Source of the DNA: Eukaryota sp. GEM-RC1
Taxonomy: Eukaryota
Length of the DNA stretch: 64,000 nt
NCBI GenBank assembly: GCA_040285855.1
Contig: JAUFOQ010000006.1
Location: 1,426,001 to 1,490,000, forward strand
Direction: 5' to 3'
Position numbers and translations under genes: made by a program. Below, in pieces: positions 10,295 through 64,000 of this stretch; the stretch's first letter is position 1, and the number at the start of each line of letters is the position of its first letter. The notes beneath the pieces were generated by a model that ran no database searches, was not told where the DNA came from, and saw only the letters and a list, made by a program, of their open reading frames with translations.

Positions 10295-10319
10295 TAAATA
10301 AAAATACAACATAATACTA

Positions 10320-19856: not shown

Positions 19857-20129
19857 CTACAATAGGAAATACTTGCCATTTTTGTTCCCACCATCAATAA
19901 CTTGACATTTCACCGTATACGGCTTAAGGAAAATATCCTTGTGGTGAAAGTATGTTGATTCAAAATCATAGATTCCAGTAATGTCCAAAGAGCCTGTGTC
20001 ATCAACTGATCCATACGCAACAGGGATGTTGTTGTATACGTAGAAGAATACTTGGTCTTGTCTTGGATAAGGTTGAACCCAAACTTGGACGTTCTTTGTT
20101 TGTAATTGTAAATTAATGGCGTTTTTCAT
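19857..20129 (-). CDS. Hypothetical 90-aa protein
   Basis: ATG-started ORF with plausible globular composition; no recognised motif. Confidence 0.35.
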   Translation of the reverse strand: MKNAINLQLQTKNVQVWVQPYPRQDQVFFYVYNNIPVAYGSVDDTGSLDITGIYDFESTYFHHKDIFLKPYTVKCQVIDGGNKNGKYFLL

Positions 20130-20179
20130 TTAGCTTTTGTGGAAATTCTATTTATAGTACCAAAAGAATTACACACTAC

Positions 20180-22322
20180 TTAAGAGATTCAATGATTCGG
20201 ATCTGGTCATTCTTCAACCATACCTTTAATTCTGCTAAGTTCTCAAGTAATCTCGAAGACATTCTTGCACGTCTTGCCGTTTGAATTGAACCAGTTACAG
20301 AAAAAAATGATTGACAAGGAACTGATGTTGCTGGTGCAGACAAAAACTCATTGCAAGAGCGTATAACTCTGGGAACGCAGACCTGTTATCCTTCCACCAA
20401 ACAACAGGATCAGTTGACAAGGGAACTGTGCCTTCGGATAAGTATTTGTCCAGTTCATCTGCATGAACTAGTTCTCTATTGGAGTTTCTTTTCGATTGTA
20501 TAATTTCTCAAAGTGTGAAGTCTTCTTAACAGTTTTTGTTCTAGCAACAGGTTGGGCATTGTTCTCAACTGGTACATTGTCCGATTGACGATCTTTTGAG
20601 ATCTTGGCAGTAAGCTACGGATTCCTTTAATGTTGTTTTTCACTTCGAGATCTGATATCGGTAACATGTTTGTTTTGAGTCTCGGATCAAGGATGGAAGC
20701 GGTAGCAGCGTAGAAATCGTAAATCAAGTCAGAGTATTTCTCTCGAAATACTTGACACATTTTTTCAGCTGCTTCGTTGATGACGAATGGGAACTCGGGA
20801 TCCGTGGATGCTTGGACAATAAGCTTGTGTAAGTCATCTAAACAAAAGAGCACATGTGAGGCTGTAGCAGTCTTTGAAGCTGAAAGATCTTTAGTAGTAT
20901 CTTTAAACGGTTTAAGAAGTTGAATTAAGTTGCGAATAGTGGAAAGAGAAGATGAATCGATACAAAGGTAACTGTATCCGTTTTCTTGTGAAAGAAATTG
21001 TTCAATTGAAAATGCCTGTTCAACATAGCTTTCCAGTATCATCAATGTACTGTTCCAGCGTGTTTTGACATCCAAAGGAATTGTTTTTGGGGTAGCAATT
21101 CCGTTGCTTTCACAAAATTCAACATAAGTTTGCTTAAACAGAGAGGAAGTATGCAGTAAGACACAAAAGTTCCTTGCACTTTGAATGTGTTCTTCGAAAA
21201 TTTCGTGCGCTTTTCCTACAACAATGTTCAAGACATGAGCAATACAACGTCTAGAAAACATGTAAAAGTTCTGTTCTAGCAACAATTTAACAGCATTTGT
21301 CATGTTGGACGCATTGTCAGTAACGATACTGAAAACTTTAGAAATATTAAATTCCGCACACACTTGTTCAATGAATAAAGCAGTTTGCTCTGCAGTGTGT
21401 GGATGAAGGCATTGGAGTAGATCAAGGGGAAGACTGACCAACTGATGGTTCTCAGAAATACAGTGGACAGTTACTGCTAAAAAAGAAGTATTAGCACGAG
21501 AAGTTTAGTAGTCAACGGTAATAGACGGGAGCGATTCAATTTTGGCTAGGAACGTTTTGATCTCTTCTTTAACAGTTGTGTTTCTGGATATGATTCTCTC
21601 TCTAAGAGTGTTCCTTACGGGTACATTCGGCATAAGAGGAAGAGATTGAGTGCAAGTTAGCAAATCAATGAATGAGTCCGATTCTACAATGTTTAGTGAA
21701 ACGTTGTTCAAGACAAAGAAGTGAGTAAGTCTGTCGTCGAACGAGGGGGTTGATTTCTTAATGCCAAGAAGTTCAGTAATAGGAGCAGTTCTTTGAGGAT
21801 TTCCTTCTAACCATCCGTTGTGATAGTTATCTAGATGTAACTTTAATCTAGAAGTAGTAACCCGAGATTTATTAGACGGTTTTCCTTCAACATAAGGACA
21901 AAGAGAGCAAGTTGTTACCTTACCTTGATTGGAAGAGCTAAAGTGCTTCCAAACAGCAGAGGTTTTTTTCTTTAAAGTCGACGGGGATAGTACATCAGAA
22001 GAAGAGGATTGGGAGGGTTGGTCATCGTCACTATCATGAACATCAATAGGTGATGACATTCTCCTTGTACTTTGGTTAGGAAAAGAAACTAATGGGTTAT
22101 CAAAATCCATTTCTACTGATTCTTAATATGTAGAGTAGTTTTAATTATCAACTCGTTTATATACAATACAATATACAATGTAGTTCTACTTACATTTCCA
22201 TTTCCATATTATATTTCCGTTTCATTTCCATTTCCACATTCTCAAGAAATTTCGTCTATTTCCGCTTCCAGATGGAAATGGAAGTGAGAAATGTGGAATT
22301 TCATTTCACTTTGCCAAGTCTA
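20180..22322 (-). mobile_element. hAT transposon with BED-finger transposase (disrupted)
   Basis: SAVWKHF...CSLC...HLDNYH BED finger, ITVDY*TS, IVTDNASN, RCIAHVLN, DVKTRWNS, LDPRLK and a C-terminal WW...APATSV dimerisation domain. In-frame TAA at 21505 plus frameshifts. 5' TIR TAGACTTGGCA ends at 22322 with TTCCA subterminal repeats; 3' TIR not found. Confidence 0.88.
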
Positions 22323-23058
22323 ATCATGAGTCTGTTTTGGAAGGACATTTCCAATGTTGGACTTTCCAATCTTCCATGTCTAACTCTTTTGAATACAACC
22401 TTTCCAAAGCACTTGGCGTACTTCAAGTTTTGTCGTACTTCACGTCTACTGAAGTACGACAAAACCTGTAGGACGCTCACCAGTATCTACGTTGTCTAGC
22501 TATCCTTCAAGAACTTGTAACAAACGGGTCAAAATTTTGATTTCTGATACAAACAACAACGTTTATGATCAAAACAGTGAAAAATTGCATTTGCAAAAAT
22601 AACAAAACTTCTGATAGTTTTTTTAACAACTACATGTACAACTTCATATTTATCATCTTTAAATGCACCTTTTTTAAAACATCAACCGTCAGATCATCAT
22701 CGACTAATGGATCAATGACATCTGCTCCTCTTTTACCTAAAATGTTATCAGAATCGCTATTTGAGACTAATTGTTGTGACCAGTGTATTTGTGTAATTAC
22801 TTGTGGAAAAAATTTGTGATTGTTGTTGCATCAAAGCTGATGTCAACAACAAGTGGTTCTAATCATTGACTAATTCAAGTTTTGTTTGGTGGTAACTTTT
22901 CGGAATTGTGCTAGTCCGTTTGATAATTGGTTTTAAAAGTCTTTATTTAATTGTTGTATTCCTGTGGTGTGTTTTTCTCTGCACATAATTCATAGCTCCG
23001 TTAAATTAACTTAATCTCATTTGGGAATTTTAAAAGATTCACCATAGGCAATTTGTCT

Positions 23059-23130
23059 GCGACTGTAGTATAGCGGTTAGTACACATCGTTGTGGCCGAT
23101 GAAATCCTGGTTCGATTCCAGGCAGTCGCA
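23059..23130 (+). tRNA. tRNA-His(GTG)
   Basis: Acceptor GCGACTG/CAGTCGC, anticodon arm CATCG-TTGTGGC-CGATG, T-arm CCTGG-TTCGATT-CCAGG, followed by TTTT. Confidence 0.95.
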
Positions 23131-23280
23131 TTTTGGAACACTTACATTGATGGTGTCCCATTTTTAGCCGTACTGTTAGCAAGTTTACGAATTGTCTTAA
23201 CTCAAGTAACAAAACGCACGTACATCTACTAAGCCAAAGTCTCATTGATGTGAAATACAACAGTTTTCAACAAAAATTCC

Positions 23281-23352
23281 TTCTTCTGCCCAGAATCGAA
23301 CTGGGATTAGATGATTCAGAGTCATCTGTGCTAACCATTACACTACAGAAGA
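23281..23352 (-). tRNA. tRNA-Gln(CTG)
   Basis: Acceptor TCTTCTG/CAGAAGA, D-arm GTGTAATGGTTAGCAC, anticodon arm GATGA-CTCTGAA-TCATC, T-arm CCCAG-TTCGATT-CTGGG, downstream T-run. Confidence 0.92.
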
Positions 23353-23612
23353 TCATGTTTCAAACTTCTATGCACTCCAAGTGAGTTCTGAAGATACTTT
23401 TATATCCCATTACATTATTGTAACTCCGTTGAACGCAAAAGTCCTATATGCTATTTCTAGTGTTACGAGCCATATGCGTGTGCAAGTCGAAAAATGCAAT
23501 TGCGGCTCAGTACTCGATATTTCTTTTACCAATTCACTCCACTATACAACGCAAATTGAAATGAGTACAACAAATAGAGTTCAAGCAGAATATTTAGAGA
23601 ACTTTATTCGGA

Positions 23613-24960
23613 AGCCAATAAGGTAACCTTCCTACAAAACTATGAAATTGCAAAAACAAACAAATAATAATAAGACTAAATCGAAACGACTTCATCCCTA
23701 TCCGGTAAAAGATTACGTTTTTCAACATTAACCTTCGCACCAAACCTGTACAATTTCTCCATAATCGAGAGAAATGGAAAGGCATATTCCGATATATGGA
23801 AAACACAATACGGTTTTTCATTCAGCCATTCTAAACTTGGGCTTCTTTTCTTTACACAGTTCTTCGAAATCCTTGAAAAATTGATCACCAGCAGGACTAA
23901 TCGTTCCAAAAAGAGAAACAGCAAAAGGTTGAAACACAAATTTGGAATCTGAGTTTCGATTTAATTCTTCTATTGGAGAGTCAAACCTGGAGTGTTTGAG
24001 CTTTTCAGCAGCTTTTAATAGATTAAGACAAGAATCTAATATCCTACTAACACAAGATTTGTTACAAACATCTACTGTAGAAAAATCCATTAATGATTGA
24101 CTCGACTTTAGCCACGGATTATGGAGATCCCCTATTTTTTGATCAGTAAATTCATTTTTTGAAAGATGATTCAAAACTGGTTCAACTTTAGAGTGAAAAT
24201 CATGTGCTTTAAACATGGAATAACAAGAATCACGTACACCATCATGAATTACTGCACGTAGATGAATAAAATAACGACAATTAATTAAATGACGAAAAAC
24301 ACCATTAGCTCCAACAAGAGGAAGTTGAATAGTTTATTAAATTTACAGGCCAAATAGCCAAACGAAGACGCAGATTGATCATCCAAGCTTCATCAGATAA
24401 ATGAAATCCATACACTTTTTGGAATTTGAGAAATAAATCCAGAAGGTCCACTATTACAATTGTCAATCAAAAAAGCAGCAAACTCGGGACTATTAGTTTT
24501 AGCCATGCTAATACGATTATTAAAGTCCAAGAGTTCAAACTCCTTGTAAATATATTTTGCAGCTTACATACAGCAGAGGGTAAAAGCAGAATCTTGAATT
24601 TTCAAGTCTGAATTTTTGACCATTTAATAGAGTTTTTTTAAACATAAGATTTGGCAACTTTCTTGTTGGACAACCGCTTTTAAAATGCCATCATAAGGCC
24701 TCAAGGCCTTAAGGTACTTAACAATGACCCATTAGATGATAGAATGCCGCTAAAAAGTTGGAAATCGTTGATTACTGCTGTATCTGTCCAATATTAGCAA
24801 AAGTGAACTATAAATACTTAAGTTCTGCCATCATTGAATAACTTCATCAAGCTCAAAATTGGAGTAGAGTAAATAAATACTAAACCTCTCAATTCTTGTA
24901 TTCTATTTCTTCTGGAGTTAAAATTCAAAAGAGCACCATAATACGCATGTTTTTAATCAC
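23613..24960 (-). mobile_element. RLE non-LTR retrotransposon, longer degenerate 3' fragment
   Basis: Broken frames give YGFHLSDEAWMINLRLRL..WP, HLINC...IHDGVRD and KVEP...DFSTVDVC...AEKLKH. The upstream limit is approximate. Confidence 0.75.
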
Positions 24961-43641: not shown

Positions 43642-44184
43642 GAATGACTACCAGAAAGGGTTGACTGAAATTAACGTTGGTTGCCGATTTCACTATACAC
43701 TACATTTGTACTACATGTTAGACTTGGCAATGTTAAATGGATTCTACTTTGACAGTCTACTACATGTAGCTAGAGTAGTTTCAAATGCAAAATTCCACAC
43801 CTACCTTTAAGCATTCTCATTACAGTTTGGCACATTGTGCCACTCATTTACAAGCCACGAGCTAACTTATAAGATTCAAGAATTCTAGGGTACATCTTTC
43901 TATGCCTTATGTGGACAATTTCTTCTGTCATGTCCTGGTTGGTTACATGTCATACATTTACAAGGACTTTTAGGAGGCACAGGTCTTATCTGTCAGGTGA
44001 AATATGTTTAATCAATTGCTGTAAATAAACTGTGAAATATTAATATATTATCAAAAAAACAAATATTTCATTTGTAGAATCAAAATTGAGTACATGAACA
44101 ATGACGTGATTGGAAAGAAGCCATTTAGTGTTTCATAACAACATTAAAACGATGTTCAAAAAACTGAAAAAATTCAAATACTTG

Positions 44185-47199: not shown

Positions 47200-47330
47200 A
47201 ACCCTTCACATTTTCATGATCTCATGAGCAAGCTCGTAAGCAAACTCATGAGCAAAACTCACAGTTTGACAAATAAATGTCCTCATTCGCAAAGTCTTTT
47301 AAGACGAGCTAACTTCATAGATTCAAGATT
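47200..47330 (-). ncRNA. Candidate Fanzor omegaRNA scaffold / element right end
   Basis: Immediately 3' of the Fanzor stop. Contains a 7-bp inverted pair AGCTCGT/ACGAGCT (47231-37, 47304-10), short hairpins GTCTT-AA-AAGAC and GACA..TGTC, and two CTCATGAG palindromes. The position matches known Fanzor loci; boundaries are inferred. Confidence 0.4.
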
Positions 47331-50215
47331 CCTGATCTTTATGGTTTACGTGTGAGTCCTTGGGTACATCTTTCTTAGGCTTATTTGGACAAGTTGCTCT
47401 GTTATGCCCAGGCCGAAAACATATACCACACTTGTTAGGACCTCTGACTTTTGTTAGAGGACGCTTCGCTTTACCCTTACCCTTACTCACAGTCTTTTTC
47501 TTAGGAATCTGATCTGTATTCCCGCCATCCACGACAGGTGTTGTTTGAGATTTTGGTCTCTCGAGGATGGCAGGTCTACCTTGACCTTGAATGGTTCCAT
47601 TTACAATATTGTAAATATTGATAGCAGAATTGAAGTCTCTATTCCAGAGGACATGGCATTTAGCACATTCAACTAAGCCCCATGGTGAGACTTTTTTGCT
47701 CTTCAATCTTTCTTTTGATAATGGCAACTGTTTGGTCCATTCATCATCAAAGTTACGCTCCACAATATTGTCTAATTGATTGTGTTCCATAATTTCCTTT
47801 TTTAATTCTTTCTCTTCCTTCTGTAACTTCTTCTTCCAATGAGGATCAGTGACTTTTATCCTTTCAGGATTGGAACAGATACCTTCGTCGTTTCTGGAAA
47901 CACATGCAGAGCAACATTTGCTGGTCTTAAATTCATCAACTAGGAACACTTTAAATCCAAATTTTCTCAATAATTTCCGAATTGAAGCACCTTTTACAGT
48001 CGATGCTTTACCTCTTCTTCGACGAAAAGCAGTGTCGTTCCAGTCTCCATACCCAACAACGACTTCATCTGGGTTTCCAAACTGGAGAGCAAATCTGTGA
48101 AGCATGTTTTTTTCACTTCGTTCCTTTCTTGAATATTGTGTTAAGCGTCTACGTCTAAACCACTTTTCTTCGTAAATTCCTTCAGTAGTTCTTTGATCAG
48201 TAGTGGGTGATCGTAATAAAGAACAGGTAATTTCTTTACCAAGCACAAAAGCAGAATACTGAGTCAAATCACAAGATTTACTGCCTGGTGAGTTAGAGCC
48301 CCATTGATCTAAAATTTGTTGCCCATTTATGTCAATGCGACTGCCATCTGGACTGTGGATAAATTGGGTAGAATATTGTTGTAACCGTTCGGATTCAGAT
48401 AAACGGTGGAGATTATATCGTCTTATTTTCTTCTCCAGCTTCCTCTTCTTTCTCTTAGCTCTTTTTCTTTCCTTCCTTGTTTTTATCTTTTCCATGGAGA
48501 CTTGTTCATATCTGCCTTGCGCTCCCCAGCAGTGTATCTGAATACTTTCCAATCATCACGATTTTTCAACTTGACAGTTGATGGTTTGTCAATAGTGGGT
48601 GCGTCTTTCCAATCCTTCAATTCCTTTTTTAATTTTTTCAAGCTTCCTTTTTTCTTTGATGATTTTGGAGAAATCTTTCTTCTTCTGAGATTGGCTGATG
48701 TATCGAAACCTTCGATTTTCTTTTCCTCCTCAGATTTTAAAGAAGCACAATACATCAAATCATGCTGATTAGGATCAATAGCAACAATTCTTTTGGATTT
48801 CAAGTTTAAGTTTTGAATTTCTGTGGAACTCAAAGAATCAATGTACCTTTGAGTAGCTGTGTAGTCAACTGCTTTCACCTTCTTATGAGGATTTCCTCTC
48901 CCATCAAGCAGATCTTTCCGCATCATCATTAAACTACAGCTAACTCCATCTGTAGAAATAGAACTGTATTTGAAGTCATGAGACAATGACTTTGGAAGAC
49001 ACTTTGGTTTCAAAACTGAGTGCCAAATATCTTTTCGAACGTCATCAAAGCTACCTTTAATTTCTGATGCATAAACTTCTTTAAACCATGTAGTATCCAA
49101 TCTGATATGATTAGGAATCAGTGATTTTGTTAGAGGAAAAGGATTATTGGCAGTAACACCAGGACAAGAGTCCTCAACAAGACGTTTCAAATACACTGCA
49201 TGACTTAAGAATTTCAAAGGATCTACTTTTTCAGCATAATAGATTGTTTTCTCCATTTTACCTTCAAAAAAAGTAAACAAATAGTTAAAAAATAGTAAAC
49301 TCAGTCTAGAATTGGGATCAGGAAACACTTCAACATCTTGAAAATTAATATTTGAAATTTCCCCATTAATGATCAACTGTCTGACTTCATTAAGCTTTGT
49401 ACACAACTCTTGTCGTTGATTCTTATCAGTAAGCTTGTTAAGTCTATCTTTTTCAGGGTAACCAAATTAAATACTTGAAAAACATATTCGTGAAAGTGTT
49501 CACTCATGTTTGTCTTGTAATTCGTTATAATTTCAGTAGCCATGTAATGCAATAAACGAGATAAACGATAACTACTGGGAAACACAATTCTATCAAGTCC
49601 AACAGATCGAGCAGCTAGTTCTAAACGAGGAATGTAATGCATCAAGAAATGTTGAGCAAACTGTTTTTGAGTTGAGGCCTCATTTGGTTTAGAAATTATG
49701 TTTGTTAACGATTCTTGTACAGTCCTAATATGATTCTGATTGTTTACAAGTTTGTGGTCCCTAATCGTCATCATAGACAACACTTGTTCCATTGATTTCA
49801 ACGTAAAAAAATTCTTCCAGTATGGCAATTCAATTTTGGCAGTTTGAATTTTAGTCCAAAGGTCAGGTTCAGGTTTAGGTTCATCACTCGCATCTTCAAT
49901 ATTTTCTAATTTAATAGGAGGAGTAGCAGCATCGATAGACTCTGAAGGTACATCTGTTTCTTCATCAGTTGACTCATCTGTATCAGAATTCATTTCTTCC
50001 TTAACAGTTACATTTGGAACAGTAGCAGGCAGTAACTTCTGAATGTATTCTAAAATACCTGAATGGTGAAAATTATGAACAAAAAATGTTTCAAAAAGAG
50101 AGTACTACGGACTCTTACTTGGTGAGCTCTCTTAACACGAGATTCAATAAATTTAACCTTCGCTTTGGATACAACATTGTCTAGTCGTTTCTTAACCACT
50201 TTCATTGGTGACTTT
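47323..50215 (-). CDS. Fanzor1 (eukaryotic TnpB-derived RNA-guided nuclease) moiety
   Basis: Y...EIITNYKTNMSEHF, FPLTKSLIPNHIRLDT, ISTDGVSCS, RuvC-I IVAIDPN, FRYT, VVGYGDW, RuvC-II FLVDEFKTSKCCSAC, zinc finger CAKC and RuvC-III WNRDFNSAINI. Confidence 0.92.
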
Positions 50216-53134
50216 GAACGTAAGGTTTGCTTTTTGGGATCCAATAGGTCAGCCAACAAGTATTCAATCAGAGGTAATTGTTGAATTGAGTTGTTCAACA
50301 ATAGCGGTTTTGTCGATTCCTTGGCCCAAAGTTCATTTACTTTCTCCAAATTTCTTACAAATTTCTTTTTAATCTTATCGACCTTCACTTTGGGATTGTC
50401 TGGAACTAAAACATTAATACTGTCAATTATGCCATGCAAGTTTTGGACATTATTGACTAATTGAACTTCATCAGGATCAGAGTCATGCTTAAGTTCTTCC
50501 AAGCGTTTGACAGTTTCATTTTTAGAAAAATTATTCATTTCAAGAAAAATTTGAACAACATTTTCCAAAAAACGGCCACCAGTAAAGACATAAAAATTCT
50601 TCAATACAGCATTCAAATCGAGACTAAAAAACGGACCAAAAGTTGTTTCCTTACACCATTTGTTGAACCAAAAGGGAATATAGGGTTTAAATTCTGGAAA
50701 AGTAAACGTTGTATTGATTTTGAAGACTTGACAACGTGATACAAGAAAGGGAAATGTATCTAAGTGAAAGTCATAACTCACAAACAATCGCGGACAATGT
50801 TGAGTAATGAAGGAGATGAAGTTTTTAAGCATACTGGATTCACTATCTGAAATATGTAAAGTACACAAATCCAAATTTGTAGTCTCAAAATTGCCATAAG
50901 AAAATAAGTGTTTTTCATTAAACTCATTGTGATCAATGATCTGGATGGAAATTGATACAATCGGATCAACAGAAGAATCACGTTTAACTTCTAATTGATC
51001 TTCAGCTTCACCTTCAACAGTTTCAATGTCATCATCATCTTGAACAAGTTGAACATTATTGCCATTAATTCTTTCTTTTTTGGCAAAATCACTTTGAACA
51101 TGAATTAAACAAAAAGTTGGCAGATTGTTCCAAAGTAAAGGGGAATTAAGAAAGACTTGAACTTGTATTTCTTGTTCGATAGGCTCAGTATGTAGATTTA
51201 CTTCCATTTTATGGATTTCTTCTTGAATTGGCGATGGATACGACATAATGGAGGCCTGTGATTTTGGTGGTAATTCAGATGGTGGTAATTCAGATGGCGA
51301 TGATAGTTCAGATGGTGGTACTTCAGATGATTCCAATGTGGACATACGGCGGTAAGTCTTTCGTATTGGAGTGTCACCAGTTGAAACAAGGGAGCTGATA
51401 GTTCTAAATTGATTTCGTTGAATTAAAGGTGAACCTCGTGGTGATGGAACATCTGAAATTTTGGCTTTACTTTTTTTAGTGCTTAAACCAGTAGATGTTT
51501 TAGTGCTAGCAAGACGTGAACCTGTGAGAGGAATTGAAGTGGTTGGATGTTCTTTACCGGCAGGAGGTTGAATGGGTAACGATGGTACAATAGGAGCTAC
51601 TGTGGTTTGACGTTGTTGTAGATAAAGTGTCCTTTGTTGAGACAATACATCCAGAATTTTTTCACGAAATATGTTTGCTTGAAGTTCAGTGTTCACTTGG
51701 ACCAAATCAGACTCCACATACATCAGAGACGGAACGTACGTGAGTCTTTTAAAAAGTTCAACATATTTTTGAATATACGCAATGACATAAACTCCACAGT
51801 CGTTAGCAGACTGTGTTTTAGTCACAGGCACATAACGGAAAACATACCCCCATGGCACAAGTACTTCGGATAATATGTCTACAGCTGATTTTACCATAGA
51901 CTTACTCATATCGACGGTAGTTAACATTGGATCAATGAAGATCCATTCCTTTTCACAACAGTCTATAATGGCTAAACCCCAATGAGAACCAGTGACACCT
52001 TCTCTGGAATAATTAGCATTTCTAGTCATGGTATCACTAAGGGGAACAAAGAGATATTTGGAGTTTGTGATTTGATTTTTCTCAATTTTCGTCAACAACC
52101 ATTGATCTAGCGGGACATCTGGTGAAACAATGTATTGAAGCCATGTGGTCGGATGGATAAAACTGCTTTCAAAATCTAACCCTGCTTCTTGAAATATCAC
52201 TTTACAGTACTCCACTATCGCTTCGTCATCAAGCCATTGATTAGGATAAACTGAGTTTATGGCTTCTTGAGTTACGGGTCCTGGATTGGATTCAATATCA
52301 CCATCAGCGGTGAGGTCTTTTGGGAACGGAGGATGGGAAGGGATAAACAGGGGAGACGAGTACTTCATGGCAACAAATGTATGTGTTGATAAAACACAGA
52401 ATGAACTGTCCTTATCTAAACTCAACTGAGCCCGAAACCGTGCAATGGAAACAGTCACAAGTTGAGTCAGATAAGAACAGGATGGCGGCATCATCGAAGC
52501 AACGGCAGTGGAGGGAGAAGCAACGGCAGTGGAGGGGAAAGAACTGTCCTTATCTAAACTCAACTGAGCCCGAAACCGTGCAATGGAAACAGTCACAAGT
52601 TGAGTCAGATAAGAACAGGATGGCGGCATCATCGAAGCAACGGCAGTGGAGGGAGAAGCAACGGCAGTGGAGGGGGAAAGAACTGTCCTTATCTAAACTC
52701 AACTGAGCCCGAAACCGTGCAATGGAAACAGTCACAAGTTGAGTCAGATAAGAACAGGATGGCGGCATCATCGAAGCAACGGCAGTGGAGGGAGAAGCAA
52801 CGGCAGTGGAGGGAAAGAACTGTCCTTATCTAAACTCAACTGAGCCCGAAACCGTGCAATGGAAACAGTCACAAGTTGAGTCAGATAAGAACAGGATGGC
52901 GGCATCATCGAAGCAACGGCAGTAGAGGGAGAAGCAACAGCAGTAGAGGGAGAAGCAACGGCAGTCATCACAGCAACGGCAGTAGAGGGAGAAGCAACAG
53001 CAGTAGAGGGGGAAAGAACTGTCCTTATCTGAACTCAACTGAGCCCGAAACCGTGCAATGGAAACAGTCACAAGTTGAGTAAGATAAGGACATGATGGCG
53101 GACAACATCTGTTTGGATGCAGAACAAACGACAT
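47323..53134 (-). CDS. Polyprotein 1 (~1,930 aa after indel repair): repeat leader - 2A - Ulp1/SENP8-like protease - PolB-exonuclease-like domain - Fanzor1 - zinc knuckle
   Basis: ORFs 52826..53134, 50050..52632, 49373..49993, 48483..49406 and 47323..48552 are consecutive, and each break lies at a homopolymer run. 2A, protease, exo-like domain and Fanzor N-terminus lie in a single uninterrupted frame (50050..52632). Confidence 0.75.
52276..52335 (-). other. 2A/StopGo ribosomal skipping peptide 1
   Basis: HPPFPKDLTADGDIESNPG|P matches the D(V/I)ExNPG|P consensus with the usual upstream DL..DG. Confidence 0.9.
52403..53100 (-). repeat. Tandem array of ~138-bp hairpin units (5 copies, the last partial) in the leader of polyprotein 1
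   Basis: Units start (+ strand) at 52403, 52541, 52680, 52817 and 53016. Periods 138/139/137 differ only in a G-run; the 199-bp unit has extra ~21-bp sub-repeats. Confidence 0.95.
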
Positions 53135-53248
53135 TTATACTGTAGGAGGAAGGAAAATGAAATCCCACACAGACTGTAATGGACATGTGTGTGTGAATTC
53201 ACGTGTTAAAAAACGAAATCTGTAATAAAGTCTATATCAGAATTTCCC

Positions 53249-54766
53249 ATGTCCTACTCAATCTTCAAACTCAGAAATACTTCTGAACAAGAAAGTCGTT
53301 CCCGTACCATCAAAACATATATGAAACTTGTTGTAAAGCTTGCTGATAAGCATGCAGTTAACTTGTCAGTTGTTCTTCTTCCTTATGGAACATACAATTC
53401 ATGGAGAACTAAATCCATCCACATAACGGAAGTGTCAACATCTGACTTACCAGATGATCTTAAAAAGGGTACCATGGATTTTTGCCTCAACTACAAATCA
53501 GCCGTTGCCATTGTGCTAGATGTTGATCTAGAAACTGTTCATCTCTTTCCTTTTGATGGTTCTTATGAGAAGCGTGACATATCTCTTCCACTTCCTTCAA
53601 CAACTTTAACTCTAAATCATCTTAAGGATCTACTCAAAGACGTTAAACGAGTTACAATTGCTCGTTCCCCTCCTCCTCCTCAGCCTCAGTCTCCTCCTCT
53701 TTTACATGATTGTGACAATACTCGCTTTGACGATACTCCATCGCAAGTCGTTTTTCCTTCACCAAAACGTCGTATTGATAACTTCGCAATCAATCATATT
53801 CATTCTATTTTCTCTGAACCATCTGAAATAGTTCCTGTTCCAGTCAGTGATAATGCTAATTTATCTAAACCTATGAAACGCAAAAAACAACGTAACCCGT
53901 TGATTCTTTCTGTAGATTTAATCAGTGATCAGTTTTACATAAATTCAAAATTAAAATTTGAATTTAGTGATATTGAGAAAATGTTGACAAAGGATGATAG
54001 GGAAGGTAAAACACAACTCTTGTTGAGTTCTGAACTTGATTTCATTGTGATGCTTGCATTCCAAAAATTTAAATCAAGTAGGTACAAGTTCCTGCAATCT
54101 CAAGAAACTCAACAGTTGGTAGGTGATCCAATATGCTATGCCTTACATTCTGGTAAGGCCATTGTCGATACACTAAAATCAGGAAAACGAATTCTTGCCC
54201 CATTATGTTTGGTGAAAGAACATGTTCCTGGTGATGCAGGATCTGGTCATTGGATTCTTATTGAATTGTTTCTAAATGAAGCAAATGTATTATTATTCAA
54301 TATTTATGATTCTTTGGATTACTCATTAACCACTGAATTAATCGTTAATCCTTTTAGAACTGTTTATGGATGTGGGGAAACAAATCTGTTTGCAAGATTA
54401 CCAGAGTATAAGGTGGACTATTATATACCTTTTGCACAGTCAACATCGTCTCTTATCTGTGGATGGATTGTCTGTTTGAATGTTACTTTAATTTTACAAG
54501 GATTAATGGTTGATGCACGTCAGGAACAAAATCAGACAAAATTATACACTAACAGATCAAGAAAAAATCTATGTCTTGTTATGTATGATCTACTTCAGAG
54601 TGTACAACCTGATTTGGTGACAGAACAAAATGTAATTGATGGTTCAACAACAAAATTTGAAAACAAATCGTCAAAGACAAAAGACGAAAATGAAGTTTTA
54701 GGGAAAAAACAGGAAAACGAAGAATTAAAACCACTGCAAGTGCTTTTGGAATCAAAAATACTTTAA
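53249..54766 (+). CDS. Ulp1/C48-family cysteine protease (second copy)
   Basis: C-terminal GSGHWILIEL...IYDSL...AQSTSSLICGWIVC carries the H-D-Q-C catalytic set; N-terminal half not recognised. Confidence 0.75.
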   Translation: MSYSIFKLRNTSEQESRSRTIKTYMKLVVKLADKHAVNLSVVLLPYGTYNSWRTKSIHITEVSTSDLPDDLKKGTMDFCLNYKSAVAIVLDVDLETVHLFPFDGSYEKRDISLPLPSTTLTLNHLKDLLKDVKRVTIARSPPPPQPQSPPLLHDCDNTRFDDTPSQVVFPSPKRRIDNFAINHIHSIFSEPSEIVPVPVSDNANLSKPMKRKKQRNPLILSVDLISDQFYINSKLKFEFSDIEKMLTKDDREGKTQLLLSSELDFIVMLAFQKFKSSRYKFLQSQETQQLVGDPICYALHSGKAIVDTLKSGKRILAPLCLVKEHVPGDAGSGHWILIELFLNEANVLLFNIYDSLDYSLTTELIVNPFRTVYGCGETNLFARLPEYKVDYYIPFAQSTSSLICGWIVCLNVTLILQGLMVDARQEQNQTKLYTNRSRKNLCLVMYDLLQSVQPDLVTEQNVIDGSTTKFENKSSKTKDENEVLGKKQENEELKPLQVLLESKIL

Positions 54767-55231
54767 AAAAATGTATTGACAGTGATAGAGAATAAATAGT
54801 ACAATATAGATGTATTTATAATTTTGTATAACAGGTAAGAATAACACAACGCATACACAATAATAATTGTACAATATTACAATGTTCAATTTTGCAGTTT
54901 GAACTGTGTCAGACGTAGTCTGAATACCAATGTTTTGTTACATAGTTATTACTTACAGAACAATCCGTGAATTTCATCCACCTGAAATCTGACAGAAATT
55001 TGTTACAGATTTAGTATGTCAGAAAATGTGACATATTAAACTAGACCAATTTGTTACATATTCAGTGTAGATGTGGTAGCATAGTTTATGTGAAAAATCA
55101 TGGTATAAATTATAAATTTAGACCAGATAAACCCAATCAATCAACTTCTTCGTTGATTGATAAATAAAGAAAAATAGTTATAAAGTATATTGTTCTACAT
55201 AATAAAAAAACATCAATGAATTATTGAAAGA

Positions 55232-58200
55232 CTATATAAAATCAAGTGCTTGCAATCCTGAGGGTCTAAAGAAGTGTTTTTCCAAATTTTGCTTTTTGTC
55301 TTTTTCACGGATAGAATCGTAAAAGACAACGATTTTTTGATTATGTTCATACAAATTGTAAACATGTCTGGCATCATTTGGCAGATCAAAGATTATACAA
55401 AGATCAGCCTGAACAGAATGGTTAACCGCTAATTGAGTAGTACTGATCAATAAAACAGGATAAGTCTGTTCATCGAATGTTTTCAGACTTGATGTAATCT
55501 TTCGTGGTTTTCCACCCTCTAGTGACACAACTTTAAAAGAAATCTCAGGACGAAGCCTTGAAAGTTTCCTTACTTTGTCAACTGAATCAGTTGTAATTAC
55601 AACTTTTGTAACTCAAATATAGTCAACAAATGCTTCACATTGTTGATTTTTTCATCAAAATTCCATCTAGATGAAAGAAACTGAAGTCTTTTCGTCGTAT
55701 CAATGTCGATGGGATGAGCACTTTCTTCAACAACAGGAATCTCAACTTGTTGAACTTGTTGAGTCGATTGAACAGTTAAAGCATGTAGTTCAAGACTTCG
55801 TTGTTCGTAAATATTTTTGAATCACAATAACGAACATCATGAACTTCTAATGGTACACCAGAAATACCAATCACAGATAATGCTGAAAGCATTAACAGTG
55901 TTCCATCCTTTTCAGAACAATGAAAGAATTTAAATCATTGCAAAAATCGATTTTTAACAGTTGACCTGTTAACTCACCACTTGAACAATCAATAATAAAT
56001 TGAATCTGTTTCTTTGGTAGTTTCAAACCGAAACCAACACAGAACCCAAATTCCGTGATGTACATTATTGTGTCATAATGCTTAACATACACTGCATCTA
56101 TAATTCTGTCATCTTTGTGACAGCAGCAAAGTTCCCATACAGGTTGTTCACCAAGCAGCTCCCTTTCAAACAAATTTAGCTTTCGGATTGTACAAGTGCC
56201 GACAACTAGAACGAAATCGTCATAGCACTTCAAACTTTTGAATTCTTCATCACGATCAATTTCAGACATGTTTAAATCCATTAATGTTGAAAAATCTGAA
56301 CAATCAACACAATTTTTTTCATCTTCCTGCACAAAAATAATCAACAACAGAGTCTTCGTTGCGACAACAAAACAATTTTTGCAGCAGCCATGTCAATACA
56401 TTGAGAATCAAAACTGTCTCTGGCCAACGGCAACGGTAATACTCGTCGAATAGTCTTTTGTTTGTCCATTTTTGGCTTGTATTGAATCATAAATATGGGC
56501 CCTTCAAAAGCAATCAGTATGGCCTGGTAAAGCAATTGATGATGAAGTGCAAACATAGTCAATTGATTGTCAAATGGTTTACACTGTGGTCTATCTTGAT
56601 CAATACTGCGACTGAACCTTCGGAGTTCTTTATCAATGTTGTAGACTACCAATCGTAATGTAACATTCAACACAGGAGTAGGAGTAGGAGTAATAGCAGA
56701 AAAAAATTCTGTATGGAGAGTTTCGACAACGTCGTTGTCTATATTCAACGTTCCAATGGCAATTTTTGATTCAAATGAAAAAACAACATAGAAAGTTCTC
56801 ATTTCTTCACGTGTAAAATTTAAGATTTGAACATTTTGTCCTAAATATTTAGCAGTATGAGAAGAGGCAGTACAATACGACTTAGTCCAAGATGACAAAT
56901 CCAAAGTACTTGTAGCTACTGGTGACTGGGGCAATGCAGTAGTTTCACTAATCATGGGTTCAGGAAGGTCAGCGTTTTCGGGGATCATAGGTTCTTCAAC
57001 CTTGTGTTGGGCTAAGGTAATTTCAGAATATACGACTTCATTAAGTGTAGTACATGATGATGCACATAAAGGACACGCAGGATCAAAGCACATCAACAGG
57101 TCCTGTTCATCATTGACTTGGAAATTTAGTAACTGGAAATGATGTTTCCTTCCATTCACATAATCAACGGTAACTGGTGGACTGTTACTTTTCAGTAAGT
57201 TGAAATCAAGAATAATAATGTTGTCATACCATGATTTCAACACAGTTATGGGAACCTCACCTTGTTCCGTTAAATATACCAAAATACGTAATCGATTGAT
57301 ACATCCAAAGGTGGATTCGATTGGTAACTCATGATAAGGCCAGTAAACATTCCAGACACGTTTTACCTCAAAAGATCCATGGATATCCAGCTCATTACTG
57401 TATGCAATTAATTGTTTGAACCTCGAATCTTGACAATGCATTGGTGTACCAACCTTGATAGATGGCTTTGCCATTTCCGAAACCAAATTGATATTGAAGT
57501 TCATTAGCCATACGATGAACAAGTATTGACATGAAGAAGGAATATGAGACAAGAATTGTGGAAACTTATCACCAACAGAAATACCATTATGATAACCTAG
57601 ATCTGTAGGTACAGGGAACAGTGATTTGGCACATTTAACTTCCTTGGACCACTCATTATCAATACGAGTGTATTGAGTCAAATCACTACAAGGACTTGAC
57701 ATAATGTCGAAAGTTAATTTAATAGAATTTCTTGGTATAGTCAAATGTACGATATTACCCCACTGTAACAATTGGTTGTACATGTTCCAAAATTCTCGGT
57801 CATTGACAACTTTCAATGCCATTGATAAATTGAATCGTGATTTGATAATGAATCTATGCCAATCAAGATGGAACGTAAGAGAAAAATTTTTTAATGAATC
57901 AAGAGTTCCACGGCACTTGTTGACAAACAGTAGATTTTCAATTTCAGTTGTATTCTCTGAATGCAACATAACAACAGTGCTTTGGGTTTCACCTGGAGCT
58001 AGATCTGAAGTAATTTTAACTTTTAAACATAATGTCTCTGAACGAGTACTTTCATCATCACTGTCATTAACTTTTAGAGATTTGGAAGATTTGACAATAT
58101 TTTGTTCATCAAACAATTTCTTTATAAAGTTGTTAAATTTTTCTCCATTGACATAACCTTCCAACTTCAACCTAACTGAGAATGAATTGTCTACTACAGT

Positions 58201-61200
58201 TGAATGGAATGACTTATTGGGATAAGAAGCCACAATGGCTTGAAAGAGAGACGTCGTTGAATTTGGAGGTTCAAAAGAGAAGAGAAGATTGTTGATTCAT
58301 TTTGAAACTTATTGAGTGTAACTTCAGAAGGATTTGATATGAAATTGACAAGTTTTAGAGCAATGCCTTCCAATCCTTTTAATTGATTATTGAGATGAGC
58401 ATTAGAATCTTCCATATCCACGAAACGTGAAACTAAAGATCTTAGTTCATTTAAATATCGCTCTAGTTTTTTCAGAAAAACTAATTTAGATAAATTCTTA
58501 AGGGCTTGATCATTAAGGGTTTGATCACGTGTTGGGACAATATCCATATTTTTAATAAATTCGCCACAGAAAAAGTAATGAACCAAGGATAATTTGAAAA
58601 ACATGTCTGAACGTACAACTTTAGATTCTTCAATAGTAGAGAGTTGTTTGAGTAAAGGAATCGATTGTGAAAAGGTATACAAATCGTAAAATGACATAAA
58701 AGTTGTTCGAGAGCAACGAATGAACGACATAGAATTGATACCCGCAAGAAGAATCAATCCAGGACACAGGTAATTGTTTGTTAAACAGAAAAATAAAAAC
58801 TTGAAGTTGTAGAATGAAATATTGGCATTGGTGCAAATCTTTCCGAGATAAGTAAGGGGAGAATTTAGTTGGTTTTTTGAAAGAACATTAGTGCGGAAAA
58901 GAACATCAACCGAAGATATGATGTTGTCGCTAGAAGGAACATCAGGCAGTTGACTGATAAAAAATTCAGGGGGATTTGGACGATTACTGATTAAAAATTG
59001 AGGATTTTCAGCAATCTGTTTGATTGTTAACAATGGCTCAATCAACGAACAATTTAGAATTTCTGGTTCGTCGTAATGCAATCTCGAAGTTCCATTCGGA
59101 TATAAGTTTGTCTGCACAAGACGTAACGAAAGTCCAGGAGAATTTCTTCCAGCACGACCAGAGCGCTGGTCCAAAGAAGCAATGGAGCAATGATGAGTGT
59201 CGAGAAGGTCATCTGCATCAGTTTGCTTTGACAAACCACAGTCAATGACAAATTTGACCCCATCAATAGTCAATGAAGATTCTGCTATATTGGTAGCAAT
59301 GACAATTTTAAATTGTTTTCTCGCTGGTTCAGCCACAGCTGCATCTTGTTGGACTGAATCCAGACTTGAATACAACGGATACACACCTGGCTTCTCAGAA
59401 GAAGCTGGGATGTATAGACCACCAGATCCACTTTTTTCTGACTCTCATACTCATTCTCAATAATATTACTGAGAGTTGTAATTTCTGGACTTCCAGGAAG
59501 AAACACGAGCAAAGTAAATCCTGCACATTCTGGTTCAAACTGAAAAAGTTTCTGAGACAGGGAGTAATAACAGAGACATAGTCGGGCTAACGCTCTGAAA
59601 TTGATACTTTTATATGAAAGAGGATTACAGTTTTGAGTGAAATAGTCGTAGTATAAGTTCACATTTAAGACAAAATAAGTGTAAATATCAATAAAATGAT
59701 CATTGAAAACCTGTTGAAGTGTAGGTTCAAAAATCGGAGTTATCACAAGTTTTGATATTAACGGACCATAATGAAATTCATTTTGACGAACAAAATTCAC
59801 ATCAAGGACAATCAGTGGATTGGTTCTTCCAGCTGCATGGATAGTATAGGAGGGTTCGGTATCTAAATAATTTCCTTGTGTAAGGTAATTAAAACAAGGA
59901 TTAGGTTTGTCCATAGTTGCCGAACAGATTACCACTCTCAATTTTGAATCAGTTTGGGAAATTATTCTCATTTGTGCTAATAAAATGTCAATGTCACATT
60001 TTCTTTCATGAACTTCATCCACCATGATAGTTGCAAATCGAGACAGATTGCTATTGTTTGTCAGAAATTTAGAAGTGAAGGCAGCGGTTTGAACTTCGAT
60101 AAATCTTGGAGAATGTACTGGAATGTTCGTATTCTTGTTGCCTGTTCGGTATCCAGACAGAGGAAAATCACTATCACATAAATCATTGATAAAATTGGAG
60201 AGTTTTGTGGCTGGTAGAACTCTAGGTTGACACACAATGATTGGTTTCAAAGTAACCATAACCACAACAACACCAGTTAAGACAGATTTCCCGGAACCTG
60301 TTTGACCAGAAACAATAAACGGAATAATATTGTTGTCTTTGACATGATTTTGACCAACAACACGAAACAATTGATAAAAAGTGTCTTTTCCTTCATTAAC
60401 AAATGCAATACGGCAGTTACGTGCTTTTGAAATCAACTGAAAGCAAGAAAACACCAAGTGGAAGTAGGCGTCATTACTGTCAACAGTATGATTCCACTGT
60501 TCATTTAGTGTCAAAATTTCAAGAATTTGTGTTAGTAAATCACTTTCGCGGACATAAGATTTCAAATGTGCTAATTTAGAGCTTACTTTAGGAAAATCAA
60601 TTGATGTAAATGTACACGTTGGTTCCTCTGGTGAAGTCACAGTGCTTGGGAAATTGTAAACATAGCGGGGAGGTCGTCTCCATTGAAGATAATGATCTAA
60701 CAACATCTTGTAATCACTATGATTTGACGCCAACCATGACAATGAGACTAAGTATTCCATTGCCTGGAAACAGAAAGACATTAAAGAGAGATCTTTTTTT
60801 TCTTTTTTTGTTCATAATGGTAATGGGCACAAAATGACAGTTGGAACATGAGCATACTCATAGTTTCAATTTTGTTTTCGAAAAAATCTTGATATACAGT
60901 AAACTGATGTCGGTAAACTTCTTTCCGTTGTACAACTTGTTTAGTTTCAGGGTCTTTAATTTCGACAATGCGGCTTTCTTCATCTGTATCCACAAAAGTA
61001 TAGTGCTCGAGAAAATGACAAAAGTTAAAAAATCTTGAAAGTAATTGAGAAGTGTAGGACGAATCTCTGATATTATTAAAATCATCCCACATAATACTAA
61101 GAGAAGTTTGATTATATAGATCATCAAATCCGTCATCATTTAAAGGATCGTCTGTAGGATCGTCAGTATGTTCAAAATCAGAATCTTTGACATCAACATC

Positions 61201-62808
61201 AGGTTTTTTGGGGGCTTCTTTTTCAATTAATTCAATAACATGAGCAATATCAAAGATTAACATTTTGAGTTTATAACCAGCTTTTGACTTTGCAAACTTT
61301 TCAATAACTTTTTGGTTTTCTTTGTACATTTCCAAAGTAAAATGATTATTCGTACGATCATACACTTGAAGGTTGAGTTTCTTCTCCTCCACAACAAATT
61401 GCAGATGGAGCATTGTTAATAAAATGTCCAGCATAACCTCAGGACGTACCAAAACTTTAGGGTTGATATTTTGATACAAGGATGTGATACTTAATGAAAC
61501 ATCACTAAGTCTAAAAGTTTGGAAGGGACAATCATTATAACTGTGACCAGGAAGAAGGCAGAAGAGACATGGAGCAATAAAAATGCAAAACGATTCACGA
61601 AAAGAAGGTTGTTTTTGAGGACAATGGGGAGGCATCTCATATTTGAATCCAAGAGGCTTAATCGGTAAACTCACAGTAGATTCTCGATTAGGGTCACACA
61701 ATTGCAACCAATATTTATGGAGGGATTCCAACGCTCCATCATAATTGAGCAAGTAATGATTAGCATCTTGTTGACATTCAATCAACTCCGATTCATAGTG
61801 TTTGGCCATGATGTAATTTTCAATTCTCCAATTACTTGGCGTGTCGCCAGGTTTGCAACACTCTTGCATAATTTGGGCCAGGAACGAGCGTCGTGATTCA
61901 TTGTCTGGATTGGGAATGTGATCTGGAGCGAGATCAGTTAAGTTTTCGGATTCATCTATAAAAACATGATTCATACATGAACAAACTTGGAAACCAGGTG
62001 TTCTTCCAGATCTTAGCACTGGATAAGCAAAAGTTTCATGTGGAATACGGCAGTAACGATGCAATATGCCCATGTGGTATTTAGTTCTTTGATTATGTTT
62101 CTTTTGTTTTAGCTGAGTTTCTTCTGTTGGCGGTTCTTCTGTTAGAGTTTCTTCTGTTGGCAATTCTTGTGTTGGCGGTTCTTGTGTTGGCGGTTCTTCT
62201 GTTGGCGGTTCTGGCAGAGATGGAGGAGGCGATGGTGACACAGAAGTTCTTCTGGGTCTCTTTACTTCTGGGGATGGTAAACGATCATGGGGACCTGGAT
62301 TCTGCTCAACGTCTCCATCGATAGAGAGATCACGCTTCCATGATGTGGACGAGAGGATAGAGCACAGAATAAGCGGAGACGACATCGGGAAGCACGTATC
62401 CACACATTTCTTCAACCCACCATCCATATCCCGTGACCGTGCTATGGAAACAGTGTTTGGGTGATGTGATGAAGCAATGGCGGATGTGGACGAGAGGATA
62501 GAGCACAGAATAAGCGGAGACGACATCGGGAAGCACGTATCCACACATTTCTTCAACCCACCATCCATATCCCGTGACCGTGCTATGGAAACAGTTTTTG
62601 GGTGATGTGATGAAGCAATGGCGGATGTGGACGAGAGGATAGAGCACAGAATAAGCGGAGACGACATCGGGAAGCACGTATCCACACATTTCTTCAACCC
62701 ACCATCCATATCCCGTGACCGTGCTATGGAAACAGTGTTTGGGTGATGTGATGAAGCAATGCCGGATGTGGACGAGGCGAGGGGTGTTAGCAGTATAATA
62801 GAAGTCAT
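55232..62808 (-). CDS. Polyprotein 2 (~2,500 aa after indel repair): repeat leader - 2A - Pro-rich - CCHC knuckle - DEAH helicase - unknown - degenerate RecA-like helicase domain
   Basis: Abutting ORFs 60781..62808, 59285..60781, 58194..59384, 56341..58233, 55892..56347 and 55232..55528 on one strand with little or no intergenic space; joining them into one gene is inferred. Confidence 0.65.
58900..60330 (-). CDS. DEAH/RHA-family RNA helicase core within polyprotein 2
   Basis: Motifs I GQTGSGKS, Ia CQPR, II DEVHER, III SAT, IV LVFLPG, V ATNIAESSLTIDGVKFVIDCG and VI QRSGRAGR; one frameshift at the run near 59431-59437. Confidence 0.92.
62115..62212 (-). repeat. 15-bp coding minisatellite (EEPPT/QEPPT) just after 2A peptide 2
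   Basis: EPPTEEPPTQEPPTQELPTEETLTEEPPTEE. Confidence 0.85.
62290..62340 (-). other. 2A/StopGo ribosomal skipping peptide 2
   Basis: WKRDLSIDGDVEQNPG|P matches the D(V/I)ExNPG|P consensus. Confidence 0.92.
62342..62776 (-). repeat. Tandem array of 141-bp units (3 copies plus 12 nt) in the leader of polyprotein 2
   Basis: Units start (+ strand) at 62342, 62483, 62624 and 62765; copies are nearly identical; 47 codons each, frame preserved. Confidence 0.95.
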
Positions 62809-62958: not shown

Positions 62959-64000
62959 TTATTCTAAATATTGATGTTGATAAAGTAAAACATAGCCATT
63001 TAAAGAAATCTCAGTTAATACTGTCTGTTCGTCTACACCTTTCTTGCAATCACTATTGGTATCATGTAACCACCAAGAACCTTCTTTTTCCTTTGCATAT
63101 GTCACACAGTGACCGTCAGCAAGGGAATCATAATGACAGATCGCAGACAGCAGTCTGTATGTGTATTTTTCTTCAACACTACTTTTGGTCTTGGTTGACA
63201 CTTTGGCGGTTGAGGTTCGACTGGTACTTCATTCCCAATCACTACCTCTAACAAAATGCTGACTCCCACAATTTCTTTCATTTTCATTAGAAATGTCAAA
63301 GACAGACAATTCTTCTGATGTTGGATAATGAGACAATGTGTAAATGTCCTTAAGTGGCAGTTGTGAGTTGATTTCATTGGTAGGGGAAAACTCAATCGAT
63401 TCTGAACCCAATTGTGCTTCAGAAGACAGGAATAGATAGAGTGATAGATTTGAAGAAATAATAACTGGTTGAGGATGTCCAGTCAGTCTAATGATAAGAG
63501 CTTTTGGAAGAGAAGCAAAAGTTTCAGTAATTTCTGATTTTTGTTCAGGACAAGTAGCACAAATTTTTTCTTTTCGAAAAGGTAGATGAGCTTGCAACAA
63601 TGATTCGAGATCGGTTGGTCTAGAAGGATACCGCCTTTGGATACTTTCCTTGTTAATTTCCAAGGCGAAGTGAATGTTAGATGTTGGATCAGTCCCACAC
63701 CAAGAACATTTTGTTGTTGTTTTAATACAGAAACAAAATGCATTAACAGCACAAGAATGCTTTAATTTTTGAGTTATCAACAATTGATCTAAATCTTGCT
63801 GAAGTGATGATTTGACATCTAACTGAGTCTGAACTTTTTTTGGTGATGGTTTCTCATCTAAATCATATCCATAATATTGGAAGTCTGTAGTATCAGTTTC
63901 TTCTGATTCAGACTGTGGTTCAAATTTTTGACAAAAGAGTGTAATTCATCATTTGATGAAGATGGCAAGGTGGTGCGGAATTCCTTGTCAAGTGTTTTTA
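62959..64000 (-). CDS. Ubiquitin-specific protease (USP/C19), C-terminal part; broken by indels and probably starting beyond the window
   Basis: CSWC and CATC zinc pairs, FASLPKALIIRL, His box LSAICHYDSLADGHCVTYAK..GSWWLHD and the terminal GYVLLY box. Cys box not seen. Confidence 0.75.

Follow-up and report, generated by a model that had tools for sequence, protein, structure and literature searches.

2A (StopGo) peptides near the N-terminus are known from non-long-terminal-repeat (non-LTR) retrotransposons, where they lie some 40–80 amino acids from the start (passages of PMC3708506), and in L1Tc the 2A is combined with a promoter and a hepatitis delta virus (HDV)-like ribozyme (passages of PMC5814959). 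A passage of a 2026 preprint calls it unclear what such an N-terminal 2A does in eukaryotic mobile elements. Here we describe two long genes on the minus strand of a 64,000-nucleotide stretch of contig JAUFOQ010000006.1 of Eukaryota sp. GEM-RC1 (the window), a eukaryotic, AT-rich and gene-dense sequence. Each gene opens with an ATG, a tandem repeat array (A1 in gene 1, A2 in gene 2) and a 2A peptide, followed by the rest of the protein, here called the cargo. We put the probability at roughly 55% that the array is an RNA control cassette which is translated through and whose peptide is discarded by StopGo.

Like the L1Tc/Ingi-type elements, as far as the passages on these go, the genes of the window have a 2A near the N-terminus of a mobile long open reading frame (ORF), in frame with enzymes and with a 5′ cis element upstream. 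In L1Tc/Ingi, however, the cargo is an apurinic/apyrimidinic endonuclease (APE) with a reverse transcriptase (RT), the upstream elements are a ribozyme and a promoter, and no array is described in the passages, whereas the design of the window has leaders of tandem units, reaching 336 amino acids, which are exchanged between cargos and show no HDV fold. The parallel with L1Tc drawn by an earlier reading made from the sequence alone (the sequence-only reading) fails in its specifics: the array units gave no HDV-like or hammerhead fold and no Rfam match, and the Pfam domain matches of the two cargos include neither RT nor APE.

The cargo of gene 1 recalls a different group. Fanzor1 nucleases are known in many eukaryotic DNA transposons (passages of PMC13565253 and PMC10530073) and are defined by a RuvC D/E/D triad with the Glu six residues before a zinc finger (PMC13565253). 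Gene 1 resembles the Fanzor1 elements of those passages in the spacing of the triad, in being multi-copy and perhaps in a 3′ end that is conserved up to a flank that varies; the best PDB matches of P0103 are the Fanzor1 proteins of Parasitella and Spizellomyces (P-numbers denote predicted proteins, which were used throughout for comparisons beyond the window). It differs in what precedes its Fanzor, namely a 2A and then a fused protease of the SENP8-like kind and an exonuclease-like domain; term searches over parts of PMC13565253 and PMC10530073 returned neither a protease fusion nor a 2A for Fanzor1.

The 2A peptides themselves have their closest likeness in the DLTxDG class of StopGo sites of RNA viruses, with which they share the octamer and the upstream hexamers (passages of PMC12846837). 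The hexamers ahead of the two octamers of the window, DLTADG and DLSIDG, are both found at RNA-virus StopGo sites in the PMC12846837 supplement, and section 10 of that paper tells of a tested representative of the class that skipped almost 100% in reticulocyte lysate. Unlike the viral sites, those of the window lie in chromosomal genes, and would discard a leader instead of splitting two working proteins.

Replicon vectors retain a capsid-coding cis element, which the 2A of foot-and-mouth disease virus cuts off. They, too, have an RNA element within the reading frame and then a 2A that frees the cargo, although they are man-made and single-copy, while the cassettes of the window are natural, tandem and exchangeable; a figure legend in PMC6321401 lists Kunjin C20 and 2A. 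Another likeness, by description only, is with Giardiavirus, whose internal ribosome entry site extends into the capsid coding region (passages of PMC2757703 and PMC8230311). The host lineage is related. According to these passages, translation is served by RNA structures that lie past the proposed AUG, and Pro is the first residue of the mature capsid; however, no 2A is reported in them, and the later of the two papers prefers an explanation in which initiation is directly at the Pro.

Gene 1 has its closest relatives in proteins 90–94% identical to it under the NCBI name Eukaryota sp. GEM-RC1, and further ones come from the isolates TZLM3-RCL and TZLM1-RC. Skoliomonas metamonads are placed as sister to Fornicata, with nanopore assemblies that were short-read corrected, in passages of PMC11316075, and the window is taken, from its protein relatives, to belong to a Skoliomonas-type metamonad lineage. 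The literature searched, 2A surveys included and subscription journals and Repbase outside its scope, yielded no description of array–2A leaders or of these proteins. The isolate names are absent from the supplements of PMC12338488 and PMC12846837, a search whose scope did not extend to the supplements of two 2026 bioRxiv 2A surveys, which may list these motifs.

The two leaders of the window

That both genes carry a 2A peptide, as the sequence-only reading had proposed, was borne out. Strict octamers were located exactly, DIESNPGP at 52299–52276 and DVEQNPGP at 62313–62290, both on the minus strand, in the viral-class hexamer context and ahead of a long ORF in the same frame; the six frames of the window hold no further strict octamer of the form D(V/I)ExNPGP, and 3.5e-5 would be expected by chance. 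By their sequence, both peptides belong to the viral DLTxDG class, and skipping at the G/P junction very probably occurs at both. The earlier estimate of about 0–70 nucleotides (nt) between array and 2A also holds, with A2 overlapping the 20-residue peptide and A1 separated from it by a gap of about 68 nt.

The further claim, that both arrays are stop-free and in frame, stood for gene 2, where the frame is open from the ATG through the three units into the 2A, and did not stand for gene 1 as assembled. The frame integrity of A1 had been overstated: its units measure 199, 137, 139 and 138 nt from anchor to anchor in the 5′ to 3′ direction, and the frame that runs into the 2A does not open until 52692, with the first Met at 52632. 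The one-base shifts all fall within one C run, of 5, 3, 5 and 4 C (at 53015, 52816, 52679 and 52540), and the remaining length differences are multiples of three, made up of 21- and 18-nt sub-repeats and a 60-nt insertion. Five relatives are in frame, P0009, P0013, P0014, P0020 and P0021 being open from the MSFVLHPNR start that gene 1 also has, across two to three units into the 2A. One-base frameshifts further downstream, several of them at A or T runs, split both long genes, and at the first of these in the window, a T run, P0010, P0016, P0019 and P0025 are uninterrupted. Because relatives read through both A1 and this first downstream frameshift, the comparison favours homopolymer error as the source of the breaks in the gene 1 frame. 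P0056 also has the leader type of gene 2, its unit being longer, at 50/51 residues. We also noticed by eye, in these two cases, the pentamer TACAG 5 and 19 nt ahead of the first ATG of the two genes (53134 and 62808).

The arrays have a common element at the RNA level. A 17-nt core is shared by A1 and A2 and occurs eight times in the window, always inside the arrays (0.02 expected); over 24 nt, 21 are identical between the A1 and A2 cores, as against a maximum of 17 among 60 shuffles, and judged by this identity the units of the two arrays are homologous. Each unit of the window has a predicted hairpin of 80–88 nt, beginning about 42 nt past the first ATG in both genes (by eye, two cases). The folding z-score is −4.7 on the mRNA strand vs −2.9 on the other strand for the last A1 hairpin, and −2.8 vs −1.25 for A2. 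The predicted common apex consists of a 3-bp stem, a 3×3 internal loop, 2 bp and a 7-nt loop, and 4 of the 16 consensus pairs are altered on both sides between A1 and A2. The A1 loop equals the U1A-binding heptamer, AUUGCAC, and the A2 loop is one base off, which makes this a lead only. A U1A-type hairpin carries this heptamer behind a closing C–G pair in a larger loop, while the loop here is only 7 nt.

Several known RNA elements were looked for in the units. The HDV-like ribozyme was sought with a self-made descriptor (nested double pseudoknot of P1, P1.1, P2 and P3 with the J4/2 cytosine), uncalibrated on a known ribozyme, which matched neither unit on either strand and matched 0–14 of 100 shuffles. 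Neither unit has a hammerhead core. Rfam returned chance-level matches only for the array units, with no match to U1, and no tRNA genes were found in the arrays; a bacterial promoter scan was empty, and is irrelevant here.

The leader–2A design among relatives

Relatives were found with a profile of five leader–2A stretches run against two protein collections. They amount to 112 named proteins, of which the 75 with the octamer are covered by the leader classes; the other 37 are unclassed, being mostly fragments that start downstream and a few with an altered motif. P0011, an unnamed record that matches the window's own protein, is excluded from the tallies of leaders, cargos, repeats and protease-profile matches.

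The design proposed for the window as a recurrent one does recur well beyond it. The 75 octamer proteins form 17 cargo clusters and 19 leader clusters, or 18 of the latter once a truncated one is merged, and in-frame tandem repeats are present upstream of the octamer in 14 leader types, with main periods of 10–76 residues and 1–8 copies. Five leader types each occur on two to five cargo types, and the mature start PVTQEAIN is found behind three unrelated leaders. The 2A is kept while leaders are fully replaced, which holds as well for a sister isolate with just 27% identity in the protease region, and outside the 2A no residue is invariant across five leader types. The notion of a modular cassette is well supported by this comparison: the same mature N-termini stand behind unrelated arrays of 1–8 units and, conversely, one array type stands in front of differing cargos.

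Long repeated leaders seem to be a feature of these isolates. Among leaders of at least 100 amino acids, 38 of 40 named Skoliomonas-type ones are repeated vs 1 of 49 where the 2A protein is from another source, and among a further 112 cluster representatives, of which 103 have the octamer, only three were flagged as repeated, all of them from these isolates. An upstream array with a period above 3 nt was found at none of 14 viral 2A loci, and a scan of viral contigs for the core pattern gave no match. A shuffled unit would be in frame and stop-free by chance in about 5–9% of cases. The sole Met precedes the array in 3 of the 42 repeated leaders.

The protease profile, built from 15 of these cargos, matches 63 of the 75; the other 12 include seven short truncated cargos, one zinc-ribbon nuclease and one piece of a ubiquitin protease. 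In all, three related isolates have the design, before the protease–Fanzor1 polyprotein, before the helicase polyprotein and before cargos of other kinds. Further cargos behind such leaders (P0293, P0268, P0286 and P0269) comprise a zinc-ribbon nuclease (phrog_559, E 1.4e-18), a possible viroplasmin-like piece recognised by eye, the C-terminus of a ubiquitin protease and an uncharacterised basic protein. The leader units of P0074 and P0007 contain GSNP and RFDS, presumably as expected of a translated tRNA T-loop/B-box, which is a weak lead. P0203, an unnamed protein of 889 amino acids with about 14 near-exact 66-residue units and no 2A, is probably a chance match of the leader profile.

Candidate mechanism and rival explanations

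The mechanism we propose is that an exchangeable cassette of ATG, in-frame repeat array and 2A opens each gene. Translation would begin at the 5′-most ATG, ahead of the array, and the ribosomes would cross it; StopGo would then release a useless leader, and the cargo would start at the same Pro whatever the length or type of the array. The hairpin apex would bind a protein and set translation or mRNA stability, copy number serving as the dial, and leaders would be swapped by recombination within the shared 2A-coding stretch. Such a translated-through array with StopGo would explain why the units retain frame, why leaders turn over fully beside an invariant 2A, and why leaders are exchanged with the junction at the 2A. 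The parts of the proposal are not equally firm. Translation from the 5′-most ATG across the array, with the units keeping frame for that reason, is likely; leader exchange by recombination at the 2A-coding stretch is somewhat less so, yet still on the probable side; and the modelled apex as a protein-binding site that controls expression, with copy number as its dial, falls a little short of even odds.

Giardia has very short 5′ untranslated regions (UTRs) and is not known to scan. The passages of PMC4705826 and PMC9014877 do not confirm this point. By analogy, the design may have its rationale in a first-AUG mode of initiation in this lineage. The most far-reaching version of the idea, which we hold only tentatively, is a genome-wide plug-and-play module: in-frame RNA hairpins, tuned by copy number, would be swapped at the 2A among Fanzor, protease, helicase and nuclease genes, StopGo would do nothing but discard the leader, the arrangement would solve the carriage of a 5′ cis element if initiation is at the first AUG, and gene 1 would be the first 2A-processed Fanzor polyprotein.

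A number of points weigh against the translated-through cassette. As assembled, the gene 1 ATG at 53134 is one base off the 2A frame, and A2 also contains out-of-frame ATGs. P0151 has the first downstream frameshift of the window and P0016 the next (each ends where the frame of the window is broken), and because they share these frameshifts a real decay of the gene 1 frame may exist beside sequencing error. The hairpin boundaries were picked after a first fold and the structure is derived from the same sequences, while the covariation amounts to one independent comparison, A1 vs A2. A back-translation stem test over 15 unit types was underpowered, its positive controls reaching p 0.095 and 0.19, and its only low value, for type G, is due to two copies of a palindromic piece. 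Gene models favour in-frame arrays, and copies with broken arrays look like short leaders; 33 of the 75 leaders have no repeat, and the leader types are not fully independent, several being related. For gene 2, only the leader is known to recur, because the search among 8,000 candidates gave no homologue of its cargo. Finally, Met codons lie inside 11 of the 15 unit types, so that initiation within the array could occur.

This last point is also what would be expected if the units were tandem internal-promoter monomers acting as DNA, with transcription starting in any unit, its in-frame ATG being used and the 2A removing the stub. Mouse L1 has tandem 5′ promoter monomers of this kind. The arrays here are richer in GC (about 49%) than the cargos (35–36%), and L1Tc has its internal promoter upstream of its 2A (passages of PMC5814959). 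Against promoter monomers, the strand-asymmetric folding and the double-sided changes indicate structure in the RNA, and in three leaders the array and what follows it are free of Met; we regard this explanation as unlikely. Less credible again is the view that the arrays are permissive junk, tolerated because the 2A decouples the leader and lets frame-keeping duplications of functionless units accumulate. The many leader types unrelated in sequence, the copy number of 1–8 and the existence of short repeat-free leaders would suit it, but arrays should then not be so rare in other 2A proteins (1 of 49), nor would A1 and A2, whose cargos are unrelated, be expected to have kept their core and stem in common.

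The leader peptide might, on the other hand, itself do the work as a signal or anchor, partial skipping giving two localisations, a precedent being reported for sea-urchin proteins in passages of PMC12846837. A 19-residue hydrophobic window of at least 1.8 is present in 18 of the 75 leaders, in several of them 41–57 residues before the skip; yet the two leaders of the window peak at just 0.97 and 1.38, and the want of any invariant residue outside the 2A across five leader types makes a working peptide quite improbable. The one-base homopolymer shifts throughout both genes would fit error-prone long reads, and with them the notion that the arrays are duplications made in assembly. The units, however, differ by ordered substitutions and sub-repeat insertions, the first and last are modified, and arrays are present again at many loci, not all of them in one isolate, which leaves hardly any room for an artefact.

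Cargos, neighbouring elements and significance

The cargo of gene 1, which the sequence-only reading missed, is a Fanzor1 polyprotein (Table 1). Past the 2A follow a C48 protease, a linker rich in Ser and Pro, a domain resembling an exonuclease and, ending at 47323, a TnpB-like nuclease, in total about 1,650 amino acids over four frames. The His-Asp-Cys triad and the Gln of the protease are intact and the family profile is matched, while the acidic catalytic positions of the exonuclease-like domain look lost, by eye against the known motifs. The nuclease has the RuvC D/E/D residues (motifs at 48782, 47940 and 47643), with the Glu six residues ahead of the zinc finger. The same domain order, leader–2A–C48–Fanzor, is found in a single ORF of 1,560 amino acids in P0103 (TZLM3-RCL), which heads a 23-member cluster and resembles gene 1 in the protease, middle and nuclease regions; the nuclease pieces of the window are 28–31% identical to it. 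The PDB matches of P0103 are to Fanzor1 (E 1.2e-22 and 1.3e-15) and SENP8 only. Judged from the RuvC motifs and these matches, the gene 1 nuclease is a Fanzor1.

The right end of the element probably lies at 47304, because the block that ends there recurs alone at 43857–43938 and the flanks of these two ends, both in the window, diverge. Gene 1 is probably a Fanzor1-carrying mobile element. Neither a transposase nor a terminal inverted repeat was recognised for it in 43000–64000, and the element may run past the window. In metagenomes, the leader–protease piece gave 136 pattern matches, none confirmed; the Fanzor alignment gave four short metagenome loci, all without NPGP, and none of 162 viral pattern matches was confirmed.

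In gene 2, a 650-amino-acid stretch without a domain match precedes a second helicase-C-like domain (55235–55612). Its first ORF had no homologue among 8,000 candidates of 371–1182 amino acids, and two gene 2 pieces had no usable match in the ESM Atlas. The ubiquitin-specific protease gene stops 150 nt upstream of the gene 2 ATG, with its 5′ end outside the window. Gene 3 lies head to head with gene 1, about 115 nt apart (53135–53248), a spacing that implies either one promoter for both or 5′ UTRs that are short. Pfam, PDB, pairwise comparison and our own profile (E 0.74) did not bear out a second C48 protease in gene 3; its single-sequence structure model has a predicted local distance difference test score of 39.

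Table 1. Positions of the features discussed, numbered from the first letter of the window
Feature	Position	Strand	Remarks
2A/StopGo peptide 1 (...FPKDLTADGDIESNPG/P)	52276..52335	-	predicted mature start Pro 52278
Array A1 from first ATG 53134	52403..53134	-	five copies; ~80-nt predicted hairpin unit; 21/18-nt spacer sub-repeats
Last A1 hairpin	52405..52492	-	predicted; 21-bp lower stem, apex common with A2
C48 (Ulp1/SENP8-like) protease	51750..52278	-	PF02902 E 6.5e-6; His 51990, Asp 51939, Gln/Cys 51813 regions
Family-B polymerase exonuclease-like domain	50707..51129	-	PF03104 E 3e-7; phrog_262
Fanzor1 (TnpB-like) nuclease	47323..50205	-	four frameshifted pieces; PF07282 E 8.8e-9; C-terminal zinc knuckle
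Likely right end of Fanzor element	47304..47412	-	conserved block ending 47304, flank diverges; second copy 43857-43938
Isolated 3′-end fragment of related Fanzor element	43857..43938	-	repeats block of 47304..47412
2A/StopGo peptide 2 (...WKRDLSIDGDVEQNPG/P)	62290..62349	-	predicted mature start Pro 62292
ATG 62808 and array A2	62342..62808	-	three exact 141-nt units (62342-62776), in frame, stop-free, predicted hairpin each
Gene 2 cargo	55232..62292	-	~2,350 amino acids, frameshifted pieces; domains in the next three rows
Gene 2 PTEE repeats	62119-62212	-	
Gene 2 zinc knuckle	61569	-	
Gene 2 DEAH helicase motifs	60307-59168	-	I, II (DEVH), III (SAT), V, VI; over two frames
Divergent gene 3	53249..54766	+	lacks 2A and array; motifs resembling a protease seen only by eye
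Ubiquitin-specific protease gene	62959..63945	-	in pieces, beyond window edge; PF00443 E 3.4e-8 on 62962-63204

Other mobile elements lie elsewhere in the window. A hAT-like transposase (20476–22122, minus strand) stands between inverted repeats of about 600 nt (18829–19437 and 23616–24224), and tRNA genes for His (23058–23131) and Gln (23281–23352) lie inside the same inverted-repeat span (18829–24224); in translation these repeats resemble a retroelement C-terminus, of which a third related piece is found at 4763–5029. An intact-looking MULE/SWIM transposase (1885–3525) has subterminal TAGTC-rich repeats on either side (1650–4240). At 9244–10295 there is a miniature inverted-repeat transposable element-like sequence, with 58-nt inverted repeats that are 97% complementary and 936 nt apart and no long ORF, and at 7119–7715 a zinc knuckle is followed by an apparent remnant of a retroviral-type aspartic protease.

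It is worth pointing out what these leaders offer. In dozens of natural copies the leader varies while 2A and mature N-terminus stay fixed, so that the discarding of the leader can be tested directly as a function. The polyprotein of gene 1 adds a Fanzor1 architecture with a deNEDDylase-like protease, and would be a case of an RNA-guided element bringing its own counter-silencing enzyme. The findings would also extend StopGo to metamonads and add new 2A variants, and the repeat arrays are a possible copy-number dial of expression for engineering.

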